A DNA stretch of 64,000 nucleotides from Negaprion brevirostris. Lineage: Eukaryota. Position numbers and translations under genes: made by a program. Below are positions 37,347 through 64,000 of this stretch, piece by piece. Where the stretch lies: NCBI GenBank assembly GCA_030324005.1, contig JARDVH010000128.1:32447619-32511618 (forward strand), in the 5' to 3' direction. Every line of letters starts with the position of its first letter. Position 1 is the stretch's first letter. The notes beneath the pieces were generated by a model. The model was not told where the DNA came from, ran no database searches, and worked only from the letters and a program-made list of their open reading frames with translations.

Positions 37347-38415
37347 GTGAAGTAATAGACTCTGGGACAGTCGGTTAGACAATTCAGATTCCTTATATTG
37401 TGAATTCTGAAGATAGGAATAGCAAGAAGCCATTCAGCTCCTGTAGCTGTTCCACCATTTCGTTTGATCATGGCTGACCTTTATCTTGACTGTAATCTGC
37501 TCTGGTTCTGCAATTCACACTAACTAGGGTGAGATATTCTTTGAGAGTTAGTGCAGATTGGGCTGAATGGCTTCCTTTTGCAGTGTAGGGATTTTGTGGA
37601 ATTTGTGTCAAAATCTGGTGTTTGAAAATTAGCAGGAGTGCAGCCAATAAAAGTTGGCAATGTCTACATTCTGCTTTAGTATGTATTTTTGGTAGTCTTC
37701 TATCTTTGCTCCTCTTTAACTCTTGCTGTGAAGACTGGCTCATGGTTGTAATGCCCTCGCTCAAAGGCTCAAGTGGCCTAATAATGATCACTATCTTGAC
37801 TTACACTATGTTAACCATGGCTCACTGTATAGCATGCTCACCCGTGAAACTGAAGGCTGTGGGTTCAAGTCCTATTATCTAAACACAAGATCTCGGGCCC
37901 ACACACCAGGTGCAATACTGAATGAGTGCTGCAGTATTAGAGGTGCCATCTTTTGGGTGAGATGTTAAACTGAGGCTCCTGTTTCCATCTTTGGATGTGA
38001 AAAATCCCATTGTGGTGTTTTGAGGAAGAGCAGGGGTGTTCTCCCACGTGTCCATGCCAGTATTTATCCTTCAGCCAATGTTGCTGATTTATCTGATCAT
38101 GTATCTCATTGCTGTTTGTGGGACTTTGCTGTGTGCAAGTTGGCTGCCATATTTCCTGCAAATATTTCAAAAAGTACTTCATAGCTTGTTAAGCTCTTTG
38201 GGAATTCTGAAAAGTGATATTTAATTATAGGCCTTTTTTCCTTTGCACAGAAAGCATACCCCAAACTGAGCCAGTCTTTCCAAGAGAAGTTGGGATGGGC
38301 GGCATGGACGCAGGCAGCATCTCTAACTGAAAATACTACAAATATAAAAGCAATCACTCCTGAACTTATTTGGCAATGTTCTCATTTCAAGTGTTTATTT
38401 TGTCCTTTATGACAG

Positions 38416-38565
38416 GTTGACATTATGCAGATGTGTATTTTGGAGATGAAAGACAGGCCTGGAAAGCCTCTGTACCACTTGGAACATTATATAGAGGGTA
38501 AATACATCAAATACAACTCCAACTCTGGCTTTGTAAGGGATGAAAATTTCCGCCTTACTCCACAG
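38416..38565 (+). CDS. EEF2K: EEF2K coding exon 6
   Basis: VDIMQMCILEMKDRPGKPLYHLEHYIEGKYIKYNSNSGFVRDENFRLTPQ; 150 nt. Confidence 0.98.
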
Positions 38566-39069
38566 GTAAGTAATAGATTGGGGATAATGCGGAATAGATC
38601 ATGCCCTAATCAGACATTTCTAGATCAGCAGTTCCAACCAGGTAGATCTTTATTTGTACTGCTGAATTGAAACCTGAAATTTCCCGACCCGAAAAGAGGT
38701 CTGTGTGTGTGTAGAATTGGACTATTTTCAAAAGATGTTTTGCAGTCCCATGGGACTGGAGGAAAGAAAATTGTTGCCTTAAGTTTAAGGTCATTCTCAA
38801 AGGGCAGATGTCTATTATGAAACTTCTAAATGGCATGCTATCCCACTGAGTTTTTAAATATTCATTTTTCTCAAGATTTAATCTGCCTATTTTAAAAAGG
38901 AGTCCTTTTGTGCATGTGTTTTCTGTAATAAGTTTAATTTGCAAAATCTGTGGCCAAATATTATCTCGGTGCCTGTGATAAGCATGTATGCTTTGAACTG
39001 TGAATCACCCTTCCACTAAAATCAAATTAATTAACAAGTCTTTCCTTTGACCTTACCATATAATTACAG

Positions 39070-39202
39070 GCATTTAGTCATTTCACTTTTGAACGCTCTG
39101 CACACCAGTTGATTGTTGTTGACATCCAGGGAGTGGGAGATTTGTACACAGATCCTCAGATTCATACGTTTGGTGGCACAGACTTTGGAGATGGCAATTT
39201 GG
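39070..39202 (+). CDS. EEF2K: EEF2K coding exon 7 (catalytic Asp)
   Basis: AFSHFTFERSAHQLIVVDIQGVGDLYTDPQIHTFGGTDFGDGNL(G); 133 nt. Confidence 0.98.
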
Positions 39203-39938
39203 GTAATGTTTCTTTATAAACTAGTGGCATCTGTAATTACGCCATTCCTTCACTTACTCAGTTATTTAAACATATAGACATGTTGAGATAAGAGTTTAGG
39301 ATAAAAGGGAAGTCAAGCTATCTCTTTTACAAAGCACTGGTTTGCCCACAGCTGGTGTATTGCCTTTAATTATGGGCATCACATATCAGAAACAATGTCG
39401 AGGCCTTGCAGAGGGTACAGAAGAGATTTATCAGATTAAGGACATACTAATCAGGAGCATTTGGCCCTTCAAACTTAACCTGCCATTCAAGAAAATAATA
39501 GTACCAGAGATGAGGGACTTCAGTTGTATGGAGAGACTAGAGAGGCTGCTATGGTAATCCTTAGACAGCAAAGCTGAAAGGGAGATTTGACAGAGATGTT
39601 CAAAATTATGGTTGGTGTGACCCCCATAACTCATCCACATTGATTCATGGGTAGTGAATAATGGTGTGCTATTGACTGTGAGGCTTACCTCCTCTCTCAT
39701 CCCACGGGCGCTGAGGCAGATTGCGTCATTTTCACTGCTGTTCCAGTGGAATGATTTAACTCAGCACAGATTGAGGAACCCAGCCTAGGTATTTTCTGAT
39801 CGGTTTAGCTCAGCACTGTACTACATGGTGCACTGACCCATTGAACCATAAGATGGTTCACAGTATGATGTCCTGAGGTAAGCAATAGTGTGGTTATTTT
39901 TGGAGATGGGTATACTGATTCTGCACTTTTCACTACAG

Positions 39939-53139: not shown

Positions 53140-54140
53140 AAATAGTTGCAGTCCCAGCACTAATCCCTGTGGAACCCCTCTGGTTATAGATTGCCAACCT
53201 AAAAAAGGCCCCCTTATCCCTACTGAGTTTCCTGCCCATCAGCCAAATCTCTGTCCATGCCAATATACTATTTCCAACGTCATGGGCTCTTATCACTGAA
53301 TCTTTCCTGTGGTATCTGGTCAAATAACTATTGGAAGTGGTTCCCCTCCATCCATTCTGGTTGAGACTTCCTTGAAAAATTCTAACAATTTCTCTTTCAA
53401 GAAGGCATACATACTGTGCTTGATTAGATTGATTTTCCAAATGTGCTATTACCTGTGTTACCAAATGTGCTATTATATGTGTTAATTGATTATAACATTT
53501 TTGTAACAATAGATGTTAGGCTCATTGGCCTGTAGTTACTTGCCTTATGCCTCTCCCTCTTTTTGAATAGGGATGTCACATTGGCAGATTGACAGTCCTC
53601 TGGTACTTCTCCAGAATCCAAGAATTTTTTGAAAATTACAACCAATACATCCAATATTTCTGTAGCTACATGTTTTAGGATCCCAGGATTCAAGCCATTA
53701 GGCACTTATCTGCTTTTAGTCCCATTAGTTCACCTAATACTAATTCTGTGGTGATGGTGATAGCACTTGGTTCCTCCCCTGTACTCTTTAGTATTAGTGG
53801 GATGTTTGAAGTATCCTCCACTTACAGATATTTTGCATCAGTCTTTAACTTCTCTGCCATTTCCTTGTCCCCAGATTCATTTTCCAAGGGGCCTATGTTC
53901 ACTTTGACCTCTCTCTTCCTTTATTCTATATTTAAATAAGCTTTTATTGCCAGTTTTGCTGTACATTCTTCACTAGTTTGCCCTTGTTTCTCTCTATTTT
54001 TAGTCTTCCTTTGCTGGGTACTGAAATTACGGCTATTACTGATTTTTGCTTCCTTTATATGTTTTTTTTCACTTCATTATTTAATTTCCTTGGTTAGCCC
54101 TGGTTGGTTTGTCCCCCTCTTTCTACCTCTTTACTGGGAT
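53140..54140 (-). mobile_element. Internally deleted CR1 LINE ORF2 fragments
   Basis: Remnant PNGLNPGILKHVATEILDVLVVIFKKFLDSGEVPEDCQSANVTSLFKK..NYRPMSLTSIVTKML. Confidence 0.8.
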
Positions 54141-54287
54141 AGGCGTTTCAATCAGGGAACAGTTGATGACGATGAATGTTGGTGTGGCACACGGAGCCAC
54201 TTATCTTTCTCATCAATTAAATTCACTAAGTCAATGTTTTACCTCTGACATGGTTTAACTTTGTGCTTTGCATGTTGCTTTGTTCAG

Positions 54288-54397
54288 GAGACCTTTTCAC
54301 AGAAGCAGCAGATGCAGCAATGGCGGACATGAAGGGCAGACTTGCCAATCAGTACTACGAGCGGGCAGAGGAGGCTTGGGGCATGATGGAGGAATAA
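54288..54397 (+). CDS. EEF2K: EEF2K last coding exon
   Basis: DLFTEAADAAMADMKGRLANQYYERAEEAWGMMEE*; TAA at 54395-54397. The summed CDS is 2148 nt, or 715 aa. Confidence 0.98.
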
Positions 54398-55959
54398 ACC
54401 TTTGACTTACACGCAGTTAATCTTCAAAGTCATCTTGGAAAAAGAAGTTATTGTTTACTAAATGTCAAATGTCTTCCTTTTGTACCTGTGCAGAATGCTT
54501 GGAACTTCTTTTCCTTTATTTTCACCATTGCATTGAATTCCTTTTGTGAATGGTCAGAATCAGTGCAAACTCGGGCTGAATAGCCTCCTTTTTGATTCTT
54601 GTAATGTAGGGGGTCTGTGTTAATCAGTATCAGCTGCCTGTGGTATTTTTGCAGGCGCTTGGTTGAGTTTAACAGTACTTTTTTATATTCTTTGAGATTG
54701 CTCAGGCTATTTGCAGAGAAAGTGGGATTTTATTATTATTATTGATCGTATCTGATTCTGCTCTTTTATGGTTATGAATTTAAGAAAAGCACCTTCATGC
54801 TGTCCCACTGTGTTATTCTTCACCGAAAGGAGACAACAATACAGCATATTCTGATACTTCAGTTATGTTTACAAAGTGTGCAAGGTGGGAGGTGAATGTG
54901 TGCAGGACAGTTACAAGTTAAAGGGGCACTGTCATTGCAAAAGCAAATTTATCGAATTGAGTTTGTTTATAAACGCACAACACAGTGACACATTTGACTG
55001 AATGGCCGTATTGTGTCACTAAGTTACAGGTGCCTCTAGTGCCTCTGGCTGTAGAGCAAAGAGGTTACAAAGTCCATGATGGACTTTACTGTCTCTCCAG
55101 ACCCCACTCTATGATGCTTAATATTTATATAGCTGTAACACAATGTAACAAAACATCTCAGTGCACTGTATATAATGAGTGATTTAAGATGCAATGATTG
55201 TAATGTATACAGTCATTTTGTGGCATCAATGTGTCTCTTTGATTTTGGTGCTATTGGTTCAGGGAAGAATGGTGGCTTTTCAAACAGTGCCAGAAGATCT
55301 TCATGAGGCAAAGACCTCAGTCTAACAATTCACCTGAAAATCTCCACCTAAGAACAAAAATGTCCCCAAAAAGGCCTTTAAAATCACCTAGCTTCAAGAG
55401 GTGCAAATTTCAGCAATGATGCAATGTTACAAAGATGGTTAAGGCAATTGGGCTATGTAAGACACTGAGGTTTCAATTCATTTTTCAATAACTGCTTGAT
55501 AAGCAAGTATTTTGCTCCATCCAAGAGCCCCATGCTACACACTATACCTAGTATGAAAACAATGTATTCACCTCTGCATGATCCTGGCTGTGCAACTGCA
55601 AATTCCATGTGTAACCTACAAACTGTCCCTTCCCAAGAAAGCATGAAGACTTTACTGAACAACTGAACAATCTATTTTTAGGAACAACTACTAACGCACA
55701 ACCAATTGGAATGTAGTCATGGGTCACTGGACCGATGGTAATGACAAAAGGCACTCTCTCTAGCCTCATAATTCAAGAAACGTTAGTTTAACTAATATTT
55801 TCTGTGAATTAAGTTGGTCTAGTGTTAATATCATAATCTTAGCTTGGCACCATTGATTGTACAGTAACTGCAGTGCATTTCTGCGAATCTGCAAGCACTT
55901 GCTGATAAAATTGAGATGGTTTACACAGTTTTTTGTGTAATTTGAATGTGTTGAGTAAA

Positions 55960-55965
55960 AATAAA
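55960..55965 (+). terminator. EEF2K: Probable EEF2K polyadenylation signal (3'UTR about 1.6 kb)
   Basis: AATAAA preceded by TGTA elements and followed by U-rich sequence. Confidence 0.6.
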
Positions 55966-56282
55966 ACTCTTTTTATTATTTTAAATCTCAGGATTCATTG
56001 AATTATTTAAATCTTGCTATTTGTTCTTAATAGTACCAAATTGACCAATCATGGGAATTTTCTAGGTTAACAGAAAATCTGGTTCTTGCAAATATGGATT
56101 CACACCAACAAACGGCACAAAAAGGTTATCTGAAAAATCAAGATGACACTATAGGGAAATTTTAGCCCACTGTAGTCAATTGTCAAGGTATATTTGACTA
56201 TCTTGCAAACCCATGACCTCCACCACATGGAANNNNNNNNNNNNNNNNNNNNNNNNNNNNNNNNNNNNNNNCTGTGTGTCTG

Positions 56283-56790
56283 TGTAATGCGAATCTCCGG
56301 CCGCCAGGGGACGTCTGTCATGCGGCTCTTCGACTGCCAGGGAAACTTAAAAAAACAGGAAATGCTGGACAAACCGGGCATGTTTGGCAGCATCTATCGA
56401 CAAGAAACCACGTGACTTCTACTGCACTGGTGTGGATAAAACACGGTCCTATAGCCACCAGGAGAACTTTGTTGATGTAATGCGGTCTTCCGGCCGCCAG
56501 CTAACTGTTCCGATGTAATGTGGTCCTCCTGCCGCCAGGTGACGGCTGGTGTAATGCGGTCTTCCGGCCGCCAGATGCCTGTGTGTGGGTGTAATTTGGT
56601 TCTCTGGCCGCCAGGTGACACTGTGTTGCGGTGTAATGCGGTCCTCCTGCCTCCAGGTGGCTCTGTGTTGCGATGGAATGCGGTCCTCCTGCCGCCAGGT
56701 GGCTCTGTGTTGCGATGTAATGCGGTCCTCCTGCCGCCAGGTGGCTCTGTGTTGCGATGTAATGCGGTCCTCCGGCCGCCAGGTGGCTCT
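56283..56790 (+). promoter_or_regulatory. Tandem array (~36-42-bp units, about 10 copies) of CTCF-like sites with an upstream motif
   Basis: The unit is GATGTAATGCGGTCCTCCTGCCGCCAGGTGGCTCTGTGTTGC, with an exact 42-bp period at 56588, 56630, 56672, 56714 and 56756. The core is GCCGCCAGGTGGC. Confidence 0.7.
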
Positions 56791-57280
56791 GTGCGCCGGG
56801 ATTGCTGTTATGAGTCGGGCCCACGTGTCGGCTTCATGGTTGCTGCTGGTTTCATCCATTTCGCCGGCACCACCTGAGGGAGCGGGTGGCTGGAGAGCGC
56901 GGTGAGTAGCGAGGCTCGAATCATGGGCCTGGCAGCCGTCAACAGCCTCGGCTCGGGTTGAGGCGGCTCTCTCTGCTGCTGCTGCTGCAGGTAACTGACC
57001 GCCTCTGTTTCTCACTCTCTCCGGTACAGGCCAGGACCCGGGAGCTCCAACCCCTGATGAGGCCGCTCCATCCCCATGGTGTAGGTGGTCAGCGCGGCCT
57101 GGACGCCAGGAGTGCCGCCCGGGCACCGGCATCAGGTAAAGCAGCAAGGGCCTGTGAGTGCGGAGGGAGCGGCTTTGGCTGCAGCAGCTTGTTGCCCTCT
57201 CATTGCATCAGATGGAGCTGAGGAGGGAGGGACTGACCAAGCTGTCAGCAAAGTCAGCAGCTTAGCAAGGTGAGGCCAGT
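56791..57280 (+). promoter_or_regulatory. POLR3E: CpG-rich POLR3E promoter and non-coding first exon
   Basis: CpG island with an E-box CACGTG (56822) and an E2F-like TTTCGCCG (56859). Candidate donors are GCG|GTGAGT (56901/56902) and CAG|GTAACT (56990/56991). Confidence 0.65.
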
Positions 57281-57453
57281 CACTGTGGGAATCCCAGCAG
57301 CCAGCACACACGGCAATGTGATAATAAACACAGCATAAGTTTTAACAATGTTGATTGAAGGATAAATATTGCCTGATATATCAGAGAGAACTTCCCTTCT
57401 TCAGATAATGTTCCAGCTGAGAGGGCACACTTTTGGAAGATGATGACTCCCAA

Positions 57454-57722
57454 CAGCGCTGACCCTCTGGCGGCGTGGCGCTCCCTCAGCGCTGACCCTC
57501 TGGCGGCGTGGCGCTCCCTCAGCGCTGACCCTCTGGCGGCGTGGCGCTCCCATTTTGACTGTATGGCAATATGGTGCTCCCTCAGTACTGACCCTCTGGC
57601 TGTGTGGCGCTCCCTCATTACTAACTGTCCAGCTGTGTGGCGCTCCCTCAGTACTGACCCTCTGGCTGTGTGGCGCTCCCTCGGCACTGATCCTTTGGCT
57701 GTGTGGTGCTCCCTCAATACTG
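57454..57722 (-). repeat. 33-bp minisatellite inside a minus-strand Deu-SINE
   Basis: About 8 units of CCCTCAGYRCTGACCCTCTGGCKGYGTGGCGCT, the reverse complement of the family at 1-402. Confidence 0.85.
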
Positions 57723-58529
57723 CATTAGGAATGCAAGCAAGTATTTTGTTCTCAGGTCTAGTCTGTGGAGTGGACTGTGAACCTGGGTATTCCTGATTTG
57801 GCTGAGAGTGTTGCCTCTCGCTGTCTAGTTATCTAATTGCCAAGAACAAAGCTTCTCTCCATTTCTGTCAACTCCTATTGCATGATTGTCATCTGTTTTC
57901 CCATTTTCAGACGCTGTTCAGTGCAGTCAGCCTACAATTAGTATACTTACTGCGTAATCCTAATCAGCTCTAACAACATAACACAGCTTCTAGCGCAGGC
58001 TTTTGTTAATTTGTTTGTAACATAATCGCTTGCCCTTCCCTCTTGTTTCTGGAGCTATTGTTAACATCAGTAAAATACATGGAGCTGCAGCAAGTTTAAC
58101 AGTCACAAATAAAAACATGAAAATGCTGGAAATACTCAACAGATCAGGCAGCATCTGTGAAGAGAAAGGAATTGATATTTCAGGTTGGTGACCTTTCTGA
58201 TGCTTCCTGACTTGCTGAGTATCACAGAATCTTTAACAGTGCAGAAGGGGGTCATTTGGCCTATCAAGTCTGTCCTGGTTCCTTGAAAGAGTACTCTACC
58301 CTGTCCCACCACCCTACCTTTTCCTCTTAACCTTGCACGTTCCTCCCTGTCAGTTAACAACCCAATTTCCTTTTGAACACCTCGTTCGAATCTGCCTCCA
58401 TCACAATCTCAGGATGTTCTTTCCAGACTCCAGCCATCCCCTGGGTGAAAATATTTCCCTCATTTTTACTATCATCACTTCACTTTTTTTTGGCCAACTA
58501 TTTTGAATTTGTGCCTTCTAATTCTTAGA

Positions 58530-59222
58530 AGTCATAGAATCTCTACAGTGCAGAAGGAGGCCATTTGGTCCATTGAGCATGCACTGACAATCCCACGTAA
58601 AACCACGTATTTATCCAGCTNNNNNNNNNNNNNNNNNNNNNNNNNNNNNNNNNNNNNNNNNNNNNNNNNNNNNNNNNNNNNNNNNNNNNNNNNNNNNNNN
58701 NNNNNNNNNNNNNNNNNNNNCTGACAATCCCACGTAACACCACGTATTTATCCAGCTAATCCCCCGACACTAAGGAGCAATTTAGCATGGCCAGTCACCC
58801 TAAGCTGCACATTAGGGATGGCACAATGGTTAGCACAGCTCCATCACAGCACCAGGGAACCAGTTCGATTCCTGGCTTGGGTCACTGTCGGTACAAAGTT
58901 TGCACATTCTCCCTGTGTCTCCGTGATTTCCTCCGGGTGCTCTGATATCCTCCCACAGTGCGGGTTAGGTGGATTGGCCATGCTGAATTTAGTGTCAGGG
59001 GCCTATCTAGGGTAAATGCATGGGTTATTGGGATTGTAGTCGGTGTTGACTTGATGGCCAAATGGCCTCCTGCACTGTAATGACCTTTGGAGTGTGGGAG
59101 GAAACTGGAGTAGCCGGAGGATGTGCAAACTCCACACAGGCAGTCACCCAGGGTTGGAATTGAACCTGGCTCCATGGCGCTGTGAGGCAGCAGTGCTAAC
59201 CACTGTACCACAGTGCCGCCCT
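58530..59222 (-). mobile_element. Minus-strand HE1 SINE with a plus-strand HE1 SINE (about 58815-59082) nested inside it
   Basis: The minus-strand head at 59090-59222 has A box TGGTACAGTGG and B box GGTTCAATTCC, and its tail is at 58530-58812. The inner copy begins GGGATGGCACAATGGTTAGCAC. Confidence 0.8.
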
Positions 59223-59667
59223 CATCACCAGTACTGAGATACTTGTTGCTCTCAAGTTGAAATTGTTTCTCATTATTTAACTTGCTCTGATCTCTCAGGA
59301 TGTTGAATACCTTGATCAAGTCTCCAGTGTTTCCATGTCAGATTTCTGCTATTGGCAGTGTGATTTTGTAATAATCACTGGCTATATGCTCTCTCTCACA
59401 AAAGTTTAAAGTGACAGTCAGATTGAACTAATGTTTTCTTTCTGTCAGTGACCATCCTATGTGAAATGAATTTGAGCTTGTATTTGTTGCCACTGACTAG
59501 CCCTAATCTGGCAGTAAGCTGCCAAGAAAGTTACAATGATTTTCTCTGTTGAAGGGTAAGGACTAGTTTCTTCTTGTCTGAACCCTAATTGACTTGAGAC
59601 ATTCATTATGAAGTTACCTAAAAAAGTTAAAACATTTTAGAGCTATAAGCTTCCTGAGTCATAAAAC

Positions 59668-60475
59668 CATTAGAGATAGGAACAGGAGTAGGCAGTTCAG
59701 CCCCTCAAGCCTGTTCCACCGTTCAATAGGATCAGAGCTGATCCGATATTCTTCATGTCCACTTACTTGTCCTTTGCCTATAACCCTTGATTCCTTTACT
59801 GATCAAAAATCAATTCATCTCAGACTTAAATATACACAAGGACTTTGCCCCCACAGCTCTCCTTGGCAAGGAGTTCCAAAGACACTCAACCTTCTGAGAG
59901 AGGAAATTCCTCCTCAGTTTTAAATTGGCACCCTTTATTCTGAGTCTGTCCTCTGGTCCTAGATTCCCCCATGAGGTGAAACATCCTCTCAGCATTTACG
60001 TTTCAAACTCCTTAAGAATCCTATATGTTTCAATGAGATCAGTCTCATTCTTCTCCAATCCAATGAGTCCCAAGTTGTTTAATCTTTCCTTGTAAGACAA
60101 TCCCACCAAACCAGAGATCATCCTAGTGAACTGCTCCCAAAAATAAATAATATCTTACCTTAAATAATGGGACCAAAGTGGCTCACAGTTCTCCAGATGT
60201 GGTATTACCAGTACTTTATACAGTTGCAGCAAGACTTCCCTTCTCTTACATACCAATCCCCCTTCATTGAAATAAGGGCCAACATTTTACTAGCCTTCCT
60301 GTTTACTTGCTGTACCTGTAACTTGGCTTTCTGTTTCATACAGAAGTACTCCCAAGTCCCTTTGTGTTGCAGCTTTCTGCGGGTTTTTTTCCATTTAAAT
60401 AATAATCTGTTCTTTTGTTATTCCTTCCAGAATGAACAACTTCACATTTGCCAAACTTTTGCCCACTTAACCTAT
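59668..60475 (-). mobile_element. CR1 LINE 3' fragment
   Basis: Remnant LRIKGANLKLRRNFLSQKVECLWNSLP, with the tail GGAACAGGAGTAGGCAGTTCAGCCC. Confidence 0.8.
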
Positions 60476-60699
60476 CAGAATCTCAATAAAGTCATCTTGG
60501 AATGATCATAGAAATAATAGGACATTTGCACTCAGCTTTTGGGGCTCAGTCTTTGAGCTTGTTCAAGGCAGGGATTGATGAATTTCTGGATAGGGGATAG
60601 TTTGGGAAGGTGATGTTGAGCTAAAAGCTGTGCTGGTATTGAATGGCAGAGTAGGCTTGAGGAGCCGAATGGCCTACTACTCCTCCTATTTCCCTATGT

Positions 60700-62010
60700 T
60701 CCAATGAAACACAGTCTGGATTAGACCTGGAATAGGAACAAGAGAGAGATTATTTACTCCAAGAGCAAGCTTCAATTAATATTTAGAAGTAACCATGACC
60801 ATTCATATATGCTTCATAGACTATGATAAAACATTCAATCATACCAATTCCAAGAGCTAGTAGATGTGTTGCTGAAATCTGACATTAACGGTAAAGATGT
60901 GAGATTTATCTGCAGCCTATATTGGGTCCAAATGTGAGCATCAAATTAAAAGATGGACAAACATTCATCTTTCAAATGAGGAGGGCAGCACCACAAGGCT
61001 GTGTACTATCAGGAAGATAACTGTCTGTATACAACACAGTCAGAACAGACCCTACAAATTATCATATAATTTATAAGTGATTTGATGTTGCAGAGTTAGA
61101 CAGAGTAGATTCAGAAAGAATGTTCCCAGTGGTGTGGGAGTCTAGAACTAGGGGTCATAGTTTCAGGATAAAGGGTAACCTTTTAGAACTGAGGTGAGAA
61201 GAAATTTCTTCACCCAGAGGATGGTGAATATGTGGAATTTGCTACCACAAAGTAGTTGAGGCCAAAATATTGTGTGATTTGAAGAAGAAATTAGATTTCG
61301 CTCTTGGGGTTAAAGGGATATGGGGGGGAAGGGGGATCAGGATATTGAATTCGATGGTCAGCCATGATCAAAATGAATGGCAGAGCAGGCCTGGAGGGCT
61401 GAATGGCCTACTCCTGTTTCTAAGTAAAATCTAGAAATTTGGAGTATGGATTGAGTATGGACCCCAAAAAGAAAAGAACAATGGTAGTCAGAGGGAATAC
61501 TTTAGAAGAAACTAGATTGAAGTGGGTAGTGTGACATTGGAATGAGTAGAAAAGTTTGGCTCCTTCATACAAATGAGAACAGAAGATGGTAGGTATGATG
61601 CCAAAGTCAGGAGGACAGAAATAGTCACAAGTAATTTTGTGCAGATGAAGGATGTGTATTAGAAGAAAATAGCAATGAAAAAATTCTTAAAACATTCTAC
61701 CCACTTTACTGTATTCCTCAGAAACCTGGACCATAAGTAATAGGGGCCTTTGTGATGTGGATGCTAAGACATATGTTTAAAATTCCAAACACTGATCATA
61801 AAACAAATAGAGGTGCTTGAAAATGCTAGAGCAAAGGAAATCTAGGAAATAAAATGTCACTCATTTGATCAGAGCTGCAGAGATCTCTGACAGTTGACAA
61901 AATGGAAGGCATTAGGTGTAGTTGGATGACGAATGTTACAGAGTTGTTGCAGACGGGTTACAGCGGCAGATGAGTGTGACGTACCATGATCTCCTGACAG
62001 AAGCAGCTAC
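60700..62010 (+). mobile_element. Old RTE-clade LINE fragments with a younger CR1 3' end (about 61090-61420) inserted
   Basis: Remnants CFIDYDKTF..LLKSDINGKDVRFICSLYW..APQGCVLS resemble RTE-type RT, and ETWT/AFVMWMLRHMFKIP resembles the RTE C-terminus. Confidence 0.6.
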
Positions 62011-63689
62011 CTGTCGCAGCAACAGAGCCCTCAAGTTAATTTACTGTTTCATTACTATGGCAGCATCCATAAAAAAATATTAAGGGCATGGTACTTGTCT
62101 AAAGCTCGCTGTCATCTGTGGCAGACTGGGTAGCACCCCCTCCTCAACAGGTCCCACTCCAGAAACTTCAGTGCACAATTCAGGCTGTCACCTGCAGCTC
62201 CAGTATTAAGGCAATGCTGCAGTATCAAAGGAGCTGTCTTTTGGATGAAACTTTAACAGAGACCTGGTCTGTGCTCTGAGGTAGATGCAAAAGATCCAGT
62301 GGTGCTATTTTGTACCCCTGTGTTTTGACCAATATTTATCCCTCACTCGGAGATAATCCCTGAAACAGGCGACCTGTTTGCTATTACATTGCTGTTGGTG
62401 GGATCTTACTGCATTACGTCAGTGACTACACTTCAAAAATATTTCATTGCCTGCGAAGCACTTGGAAATGTTCTGAGGAGGTGGGAAGCATGACAGAAAT
62501 GCAAGTCTTAAATAATGCTGTGCTGTTAACTCTGAAAGCTTTTGTTGGATTTATGTTGATAAGTGACCAGGAGTAGGTTCAAGAGGCCAAATCTCTCCTG
62601 CTTTTGTTACTGTGCTGCTGTTGACTAAAGGATCTGTGCAGAGGATGTTATGAGAGGTTACCAGGATATTGCCTAATGAGAGCAAGTACAGATGTGAAAG
62701 ATGAAGACTGTGGGCCCTTTTTCATTGCAAATTACAGATTGTTGTTGTAACAAATGCTTCAAATGATAAAAGGATGACTGAGAGCTATTTGGACATAAAC
62801 AGGCTGTTTCCAGAGGTCTAGAACACACGGCCATCAGTGTAAGATTTTAAACAGAGGACCGGAAAAACTTCAGATAGCGAGTGTGGAAGTCACTTCCAGG
62901 ATGAGTGAGGGAGAAACTGTCAATATTCCAGGTTAGATTTTGACAGGAAGATGAAGGAGAAGAGATTGAGAGTAGGCCGATGTGATTAGAGCTATTTATT
63001 TGGAGGGTGGATGCAGTGGCAAAACGACCAGTTTTTGTAACTACATTCTTTCTTGCTAAAGGAACAGTTACATCGTTATATTTGCTCAGGGTCTCTGGCG
63101 GATGGGCTGTATAATACTCAGCAGCTATAACATAAATTACAGGCACAAGCTACAGTTATAGAAATCAATTTTCACCCAGGAGGAGCCCCACTCTCAGGAT
63201 CCTCTCCATTCAGATGGACAGAAGCACGGTTCAACATCTGTAGGGAAAGACAGTGCTTCCTTTATACCACGTTGATGTCTGCCTAGTAATTGTGATTAAA
63301 TCCTGGTATGAATCGTGAGCCATGACCTAACCCCGTTGAGTGTGTTACTGATTGGACCAGGGCTAGCTTATGGAGGGAGGTATAGACCGAAAGACCCTTT
63401 CCGTTTTGTCCCAATGTATTTTGGTCATACGCCCACTCTGTCGAGGAGAAATTCAGACCCTGTTTTACTCCTCTAGATTCTTCATTGGATTAAAGGGGAG
63501 CAGACTGTTGAATGCCTTGTATTTCAGTGCCAGTATGATGTGTCTAGTTGATTTTTTTTTGTGACTGGGCTGAATATTGGGAATGGGGAATGTAGAGTTG
63601 GGGTACCCATTAATTTATCTTTAATATTTGAGGTTGCAAAGCCTGAGAGTGGAATCAAAAATCAGCCCAGCTGTCATTCTCATTGCAGC

Positions 63690-63725
63690 ATGGCAAGTGA
63701 AGAGGATGACCCAATCATACGGGAG
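63690..63725 (+). CDS. POLR3E: RNA polymerase III subunit RPC5, first coding exon (gene continues beyond the window)
   Basis: MASEEDDPIIRE resembles human MANEEDDPVVQE; 36 nt. Acceptor TTGCAG at 63688, donor GAG|GTAAGT. EEF2K-POLR3E adjacency is conserved vertebrate synteny. Confidence 0.92.
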
Positions 63726-64000
63726 GTAAGTGACTGTCAATGGAGGGGAGGGTGAAGGTGACTGCAAACACATCAGAAATTTGGTCCTTCATCACTGAGT
63801 TGGTCTGTTTATTTGTCTTTTCTTTTGAGCAATACACATGTTTACAAAATCTGCCCTTCCTTCTGTATCGCTCATTCAGTTTCCTCGTGTATGTTTTGAG
63901 TTATAGATGTAAATTTTTGAGTTGTTCCTTTATTGAGTAACGGTGTGCTGTGTTTAACTGCTGATTTGCATTGCTGCACTGGTGCACTATGTCCTGCTGC

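Follow-up and report, generated by a model that had tools for sequence, protein, structure and literature searches.

We describe a single-locus minisatellite in forward orientation in the proximal promoter of POLR3E, within a window of 64,000 nt of Negaprion brevirostris DNA (the whole stretch that was analysed; all coordinates are positions within it, on the forward strand). The reading that we favor, and to which we give about an even chance, is that one promoter CTCF site was copied in tandem and that the resulting row acts as a redundant CTCF landing pad, keeping this housekeeping promoter open and active. Judged by its motif, binding of CTCF to at least the proximal units is highly probable. 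The coordinates of the features are given in Table 1.

Units of the array and their place at the POLR3E promoter

The CTCF-like array consists of 11 co-oriented units on the + strand (56283-56787), which start, at the T of the upstream hexamer, at 56283, 56316, 56437, 56476, 56514, 56550, 56590, 56632, 56674, 56716, and 56758. The unit at 56437 was positioned via its core because its hexamer matches the consensus at 3/6 bases. An earlier note on this DNA, made from the sequence alone, had reported about ten co-oriented units: the tandem array is real and lies where it was placed, but the unit at 56316 had been missed. TRF detected a period of 42 with 7.9 copies (score 374) at 56474-56793, with additional copies further upstream.

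Each unit is a 30-base footprint (hexamer, 12 bases, and a 12-base core) followed by a linker of 3-12 bases. The start-to-start distances of successive units are 33, 121, 39, 38, 36, 40, 42, 42, 42, and 42 bases. A dispersed-repeat fragment at ~56347-56408 breaks the array between units 2 and 3, which are the ones 121 bases apart. The array units themselves match a single locus in the genome (in a search skipping common words), and a dispersed element or a transposon-spread CTCF site was rejected for this reason.

The distance from hexamer to core is constant across all units with both parts readable, and the length differences between units all fall inside the linkers (rough p 0.002). The exact spacer and varying linkers of the earlier note are thus confirmed. 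Its statement that nearly all units keep TGTAAT and a conserved GCCGCCAG needs tempering, with each of the two intact in 8/11 units; for TGTAAT, these include the most distal one.

The core CCnnnAGRKGGC is exact in four units, has one mismatch in four others, and is weaker in the remaining three. As had been claimed, the four promoter-nearest units carry the full core CCAGGTGGC; the other 7/11 cores depart from CCnnnAGRKGGC. The best cores are promoter-proximal and the distal ones weaker; among the five middle units, the hexamer is intact in 4/5 and the cores hold 5-8 of 11 consensus bases. Within the array, departures amount to 5/66 in the hexamer, 12/88 in the core, and 27/176 in the free bases (hexamer vs. 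free, p 0.14). Core positions 2-3 are a CpG in 8/11 units.

The 42-base period of the proximal units (56632-56787) corresponds to four turns of the helix at 10.5 bases each, which would put bound proteins on one face of the DNA; the agreement may be chance.

Table 1. Features of the array and of the flanking EEF2K and POLR3E genes (positions within the window)
Feature	Position	Strand	Details
EEF2K last coding exon	54285..54397	+	Translation; stop codon 54395-54397; RNA-like contigs of 4 runs join the upstream exon at 54285
EEF2K poly(A) signal AATAAA	55960..55965	+	323 bases before unit 1
Two distal units (56283, 56316)	56283..56345	+	33-base spacing, variant cores
Dispersed-repeat fragment, separate from the unit	56347..56408	.	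24 other genome places match this part only; many unrelated contigs pile up
CpG island	56351..57140	.	200-base windows, GC >= 0.5, CpG o/e >= 0.6; spans most of the array and POLR3E exons 1-2
Five middle units (56437, 56476, 56514, 56550, 56590)	56437..56619	+	Linkers of 6-12 bases
Four proximal units (56632, 56674, 56716, 56758)	56632..56787	+	42-base period, full CCnnnAGRKGGC core
POLR3E non-coding exon 1	56824..56901	+	GT-AG joint to 57030, RNA-like runs of three studies
POLR3E non-coding exon 2	57030..57269	+	Alternative donors 57135 and 57269; contig pieces and loose ends matching window 63635
POLR3E start-codon exon	63633..63725 (end approximate)	+	Start codon 63690; translation

The names of both genes hold. 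In a family search of the genome, alpha-kinase exons were found at 38410-39207 for EEF2K, and RPC5-family exons 10-34 kb beyond the window end, on the same strand, for POLR3E. A Pfam scan of five short exons gave just one sub-cutoff Sel1 match. The poly(A) signal that had been placed ~320 bp upstream of the array is there as well, and the interval between it and unit 1 holds a 39-N gap, 5 bases shorter in three relatives.

For transcript mapping, we picked four RNA-like runs from the 23 listed (that they are RNA is a guess), and read contig ends as approximate transcript ends. The RNA-like contigs of EEF2K end at 55950, 55951, and 55985 in three studies, and at 55759 in a run of the species itself. 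Since DNA contigs continue past the EEF2K end, the first three ends weakly hint that the AATAAA at 55960 is the signal used at the EEF2K 3′ end.

The RNA-like contigs of POLR3E have their 5′ ends at 56824, 56835, and 56838 (three studies), which is 37-51 bases past the end of the array and ~840 bases past the EEF2K RNA end. The last two cores are centred ~40-100 bases upstream of these contig ends, which approximate the start. Because the array lies mostly in the CpG island and ends so close to the RNA 5′ ends, we place it in the proximal promoter of POLR3E, in forward orientation.

This placement bears on the multi-site insulator that the earlier note had proposed. The array does lie between the EEF2K signal and POLR3E, but it is not a separate element, being inside the CpG island and proximal promoter. 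We consider it unlikely that it is mainly a boundary or roadblock keeping EEF2K read-through or chromatin off the POLR3E island, even with only ~840 bases between the RNA end of one gene and the RNA start of the other. In the available text of PMC12885311, enhancer blocking needs upstream-motif sites and 2-4 tandem copies, and IL3 insulator sites are reported to block read-through, both of which would suit such a role. However, the array abuts the start from inside the island rather than lying outside it, its cohesin-blocking ZF3 side points to POLR3E and not to EEF2K, and PRO-seq is reported to show Pol II passing promoter CTCF without stalling (bioRxiv 2021.10.30.465508, as available). This leaves the proposed read-through shield less well supported. 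A role as promoter-proximal activator and anchor fits the array better than a roadblock, because a forward array 37-51 bases before the POLR3E RNA ends has the geometry of CTCF-activated mouse housekeeping promoters.

Other observations concern the same interval. An E-box CACGTG at 56823-56828 lies on the POLR3E RNA 5′ ends, 35 bases past the last unit. One contig of the RNA-like run X18, with a depth of 2.4, spans 56632-56751, for which DNA carry-over, read-through, or antisense RNA are possible. RNA-like contig cover is absent from 55986-56631, to which we give no weight as evidence.

Two further candidates were rejected. Frames are open across the array, but they are translations of the repeat; the spliced RNA-like contigs begin downstream of the array, and POLR3E has its start codon at 63690, which argues against a coding repeat. 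For a structured RNA or tRNA in the array, ARAGORN found a tRNA at 4706-4789 only, and an Rfam search of 54000-64000 gave one sub-threshold match, outside the array.

The two-part CTCF motif and its spacing

According to the available part of PMC10287918, the CTCF consensus combines a core CCNNNAGGGGGCGC and an optimal upstream site TGCAATCCC with 5-6 nt between them, the longer form being slightly weaker. Cores of intermediate strength rely most on the upstream site, and methylation at core positions 2-3 reduces binding, an effect that the upstream site damps. We judged the cores by matching them to the consensus of this study and of PMC12885311 (as available), with some of the degenerate letters assumed. 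The upstream motif TGYAAT is present in 8/11 units, and unit bases 7-9 are unlike the published optimum.

We searched the genome (2.7 Gb) for pairs of hexamer and core at spacers of 5-18 (14 lengths), with a reversed-pattern control. With the strict core there were 34 matches, two of them inside the array and 32 outside. Those outside peaked at spacer 10 (n = 11) and spacer 11 (n = 7), which is 18/32 at 2/14 lengths (p 4e-8; reversed control, 0). The GAC-type core of the distal units, paired with the hexamer, gave 17 matches, three of them in the array, and 10/14 of the others were at spacers 10-11 (p 2e-6, or 7e-7 minus one N-containing row; reversed control, 1). The array spacer is 11, the longer of the two spacings favored genome-wide, and 5/33 strict two-part sites at spacers 10-11 in 2.7 Gb fall in this array of 500 bases. 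The core alone had 2398 matches genome-wide vs. 275 in the reversed control.

When one unit was base-shuffled and tandemised 200,000 times, the core appeared in 626 shuffles (0.3%), and the core together with the hexamer at the right distance in none. The motif patterns of the shuffle and genome tests were picked after the unit had been seen, but the unit has no bearing on the spacing peak, which comes from matches elsewhere in the genome. We also compared a proximal unit to the chicken HS4 probe as printed in the available text of PMC12885311, which gave 22/32 identities by eye and an equal two-part spacing. The earlier note had put the ungapped match to cHS4 FII at 23/32; its version of the probe departs from the printed one at a single base, which lowers the count by one.

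Three results, namely the genome-wide spacing test, the shuffle test, and the confinement of change to linkers, support reading the units as a predicted CTCF core (ZF3-7) plus upstream (ZF9-11) motif multiplied by tandem duplication, as the earlier note had proposed. It seems very improbable that the unit is instead read by another factor, or by none, and that its CTCF likeness is accidental. An E-box binder would find CAGGTG in 6/11 units, the free spacer bases are kept as well as the core, and the core by itself does turn up among the shuffles. An accidental likeness fits poorly with the genome-wide spacing peaks and with the fact that no shuffle had both a core and a hexamer at the CTCF spacing that this genome uses. 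It also fits poorly with a variant unit in X4 and X18, in which the core NNN bases vary and the hexamer, the spacing, and AGGTGGC are kept.

Change among relatives

The comparison with relatives draws on four DNA-like runs from the 23 listed, which include X3, X8, X4, and the best same-species run, X1. In X3 and X8, one contig each runs from the EEF2K 3′ end through the array to POLR3E exon 1, which makes an assembly artefact unlikely. Both carry 84 extra bases, that is, two more units (13 vs. 11) in the proximal block, with joints 56709 to 56632. The X4 version of the array is broken and rearranged. In X1, which is possibly the source sample, 56578-56701 is uncovered, with near-identical units collapsed, and the unit count of 11 rests on the assembly.

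Conservation of the array among these relatives is shallow, because they are just ~4% diverged. The differences considered are 40 of 93 substitutions and 12 of 31 indels; the listed X3 indels account for all of its gaps, and outside the dispersed repeat the list of its substitutions is apparently complete up to 56834. Among the differences listed between the window and X3, the footprint had 13/270 and the linker 14/81 (p 0.0006); with the doubly aligned part removed, the listed differences were 8/210 and 10/63 (p 0.002). The X3 indels listed include just one +1/-1 pair inside a footprint, with the spacing preserved.

At 56319, in a hexamer, all three relatives have the consensus base. X3 has the consensus base at five positions where the window departs from it (56319, 56463, 56501, 56652, and 56676) and itself departs from the consensus at core bases 56539, 56660, and 56661.

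The earlier note had looked to the orthologous interval for motif-specific conservation and copy-number variation, and had named substitutions spread evenly over motif and non-motif positions as evidence against its reading. In these close relatives, copy number does vary (the 84 bases of X3 and X8), but motif-specific conservation was not seen: contact and free bases inside the footprint differ from X3 at 6/126 vs. 7/144 (p 1.0, in one close relative and with low power). The differences concentrate in the linkers, yet they are even over contact and non-contact bases in the 30-base footprint. Conservation of contact bases would be a sign of selection, not of binding. Moreover, the footprint is not slower than the upstream flank (3.8-4.8% vs. 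2.3%, 9/383; p 0.31). The fast-changing part of the array is its linkers, and fast linkers are obtainable from unit shuffling alone. The geometry of the array is kept, with no support in these comparisons for selection on CTCF contacts.

These results are relevant to a simpler account, in which only the one or two start-nearest sites matter and the extra copies, bound or not, have no effect, being products of ordinary turnover in a GC-rich promoter minisatellite whose unit by chance included a CTCF site. We see this as a real possibility, though on the doubtful side. The lack of excess conservation at contact bases and of a slowdown relative to the flank agrees with it, as do the weaker distal cores and the variation of copy number and order between close relatives. 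Such copying also recurs, since TRF calls a repeat at 7/8 of the genomic loci that have two strict cores, and in voles DXPas34 is reported to have lost CTCF sites in one species (PMC3149622, in the part available). Turnover without effect is harder to reconcile with a spacing that stays fixed though linkers vary from 3 to 12 bases, and with a hexamer intact in 8/11 units up to the most distal, with the consensus restored in relatives at 56319 and 56676. Besides, the distal GAC-type core is a genome-wide two-part variant and not noise.

Proposed function and known systems

Returning to the CTCF landing pad that we prefer, the array would have formed when one promoter CTCF site was copied in tandem into a minisatellite, and CTCF would bind its units. 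The sites nearest the gene (the last one or two, ~40-100 bases ahead of the RNA 5′ ends) would keep nucleosomes away and help Pol II to load, and the weaker distal cores would still be bound thanks to the upstream motif. In CTCF structures, as given in the available text of PMC10484683, ZF1-7 span 21 bases counted from where the core begins, and ZF8-11 extend as far as 18 bases upstream. With this reach of ~39 bases, 11-finger CTCF molecules could sit head to tail on the 42-base units; the shorter units could presumably be filled only without ZF1-2 contacts. CpG at core positions 2-3 would make binding methylation-sensitive, an effect damped by the upstream motif.

A row of CTCF would also stop cohesin coming from the POLR3E side, and this boundary effect would likely be secondary, a by-product. 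In the available part of PMC12885311, tandem upstream-motif sites insulate best, on the ZF3 side, and by its orientation rule the ZF3 side of the array faces POLR3E.

The promoter geometry has precedents in the available text of several studies. In mouse cells, forward CTCF tightly upstream of the start (median ~79 bp) activates housekeeping genes, and CTCF depletion reduced just 29% of the promoters carrying strong forward or motif-less CTCF (PMC12695661). Polr3e was not found in the 10 supplement files of that study. Co-orientation of CTCF near the start is reported as a jawed-vertebrate trait, and in medaka and human the orientation of promoter sites did not separate expression levels (bioRxiv 2026.10.19.760054). 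Skate is reported to have ctcf, cohesin, and an orientation code (PMC10115646), and lamprey CTCF already binds the two-part motif (PMC5504073).

When the genome was searched for strict cores in co-oriented pairs, separated by 12-40 bases, 10 matches turned up at 8 loci, with none in the control and 0.03 expected. Tandem CTCF cores, as predicted from their motif, are thus recurrent but rare in this genome. The TRF repeats at 7/8 of these loci have periods of 32-42 bases, and the hexamer precedes every matching core in the POLR3E array only. Two of the other loci are CTCF-core minisatellites in CpG-rich patches without the upstream hexamer, with ~9 copies of 37 bases (L017:1490-1833, G000:C115) and ~7 copies of 32 bases (L016:1500-1759, G000:C106). 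Shorter tandem repeats of 33-41 bases with CCGCCAG-type cores occur at L014:1447-1613, L015:1452-1622, L022:1477-1567, and L023:810-882, and those of L014, L022, and L023 resemble one another.

Minisatellites of CTCF sites beside promoters are already known from mouse DXPas34, near the Tsix major promoter (PMC3149622, in the part available). By its predicted sites, the POLR3E array answers to the same description, with units some tens of bases long arranged head to tail, one site in each, and a copy number that differs among relatives. Both are CpG-rich minisatellites beside a promoter, with blocks or site numbers that vary among relatives. The DXPas34 monomers are 30-34 bases long with a CTCF site in each. 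Unlike DXPas34, the array here, known from sequence, has in each unit a predicted two-part motif at fixed spacing, belongs to a housekeeping gene for a Pol III subunit, and abuts the start upstream.

The forward promoter-proximal CTCF sites of PMC12695661 are also similar, in that the motif precedes the start of an essential housekeeping gene by a few tens of bases (the list includes Polr3a and Polr2c). They are described in its available text as single peaks, whereas the POLR3E array has 11 units in a row over 500 bases. Chicken HS4, IL3 +2.9 kb, and the engineered 2-4x tandem sites at Sox2 (PMC12885311, as available) are two-part insulator sites, and the array has the HS4 layout and spacing. 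At Sox2, strong insulation required tandem copies. The array differs in being natural, of variable copy number, and at a promoter, with its ZF3 side facing the gene. Finally, human simple tandem repeats co-bound by CTCF and BORIS (PMC5007689, in the part available) likewise form clustered sites, which here are predicted. A single unit of those repeats lacks a full cluster site and binding is staggered, whereas most units of the POLR3E array hold a whole 30-base two-part site.

We found no publication on the POLR3E array in the open-access literature, searched by titles and abstract openings. The array points to no new mechanism. It appears to be an unusually clean natural series of two-part CTCF sites, with fixed spacing, graded cores, and variable copy number at one promoter. 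If bound, it could tell whether the effects of tandem sites are additive, whether weak cores can be rescued by the upstream motif, and whether orientation separates promoter activation from insulation. So far, these questions of additivity, rescue, and orientation have mostly been studied with engineered repeats.

In the mouse, the Polr3e start is preceded by a tRNA-Leu gene occupied by Pol III, and intron 1 contains an antisense MIR that works as a roadblock (PMC5358760, in the part available); tRNA genes are reported to be able to block enhancers (PMC4584330, likewise). In contrast to mouse Polr3e, ARAGORN and Rfam found no tRNA in 54000-64000. From this single comparison, the slot before POLR3E may be taken by a CTCF array in some lineages and by a tRNA gene in others. 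A bolder view, which we think rather unlikely, is that cartilaginous fishes repeatedly multiply promoter CTCF sites into minisatellites. The array would then be a natural tandem insulator of the engineered type, at the spot of the mammalian Pol III-bound tRNA-Leu gene. Its copy number (11, and 13 in two relatives) would set how open and how walled off the promoter is, and core CpG methylation would act as the switch.

Elsewhere in the window, a tRNA-Leu(TAG) gene lies on the - strand at 4706-4789, upstream of the EEF2K exons and in a CpG-rich patch. The 5′ part of a second tRNA-Leu-like gene, on the + strand at ~5026-5062, is divergent from the first and breaks off at a gap of Ns. A related 33-base minisatellite, of a type common in sharks, forms two arrays on opposite strands, at 57454-57716 and 2-350.
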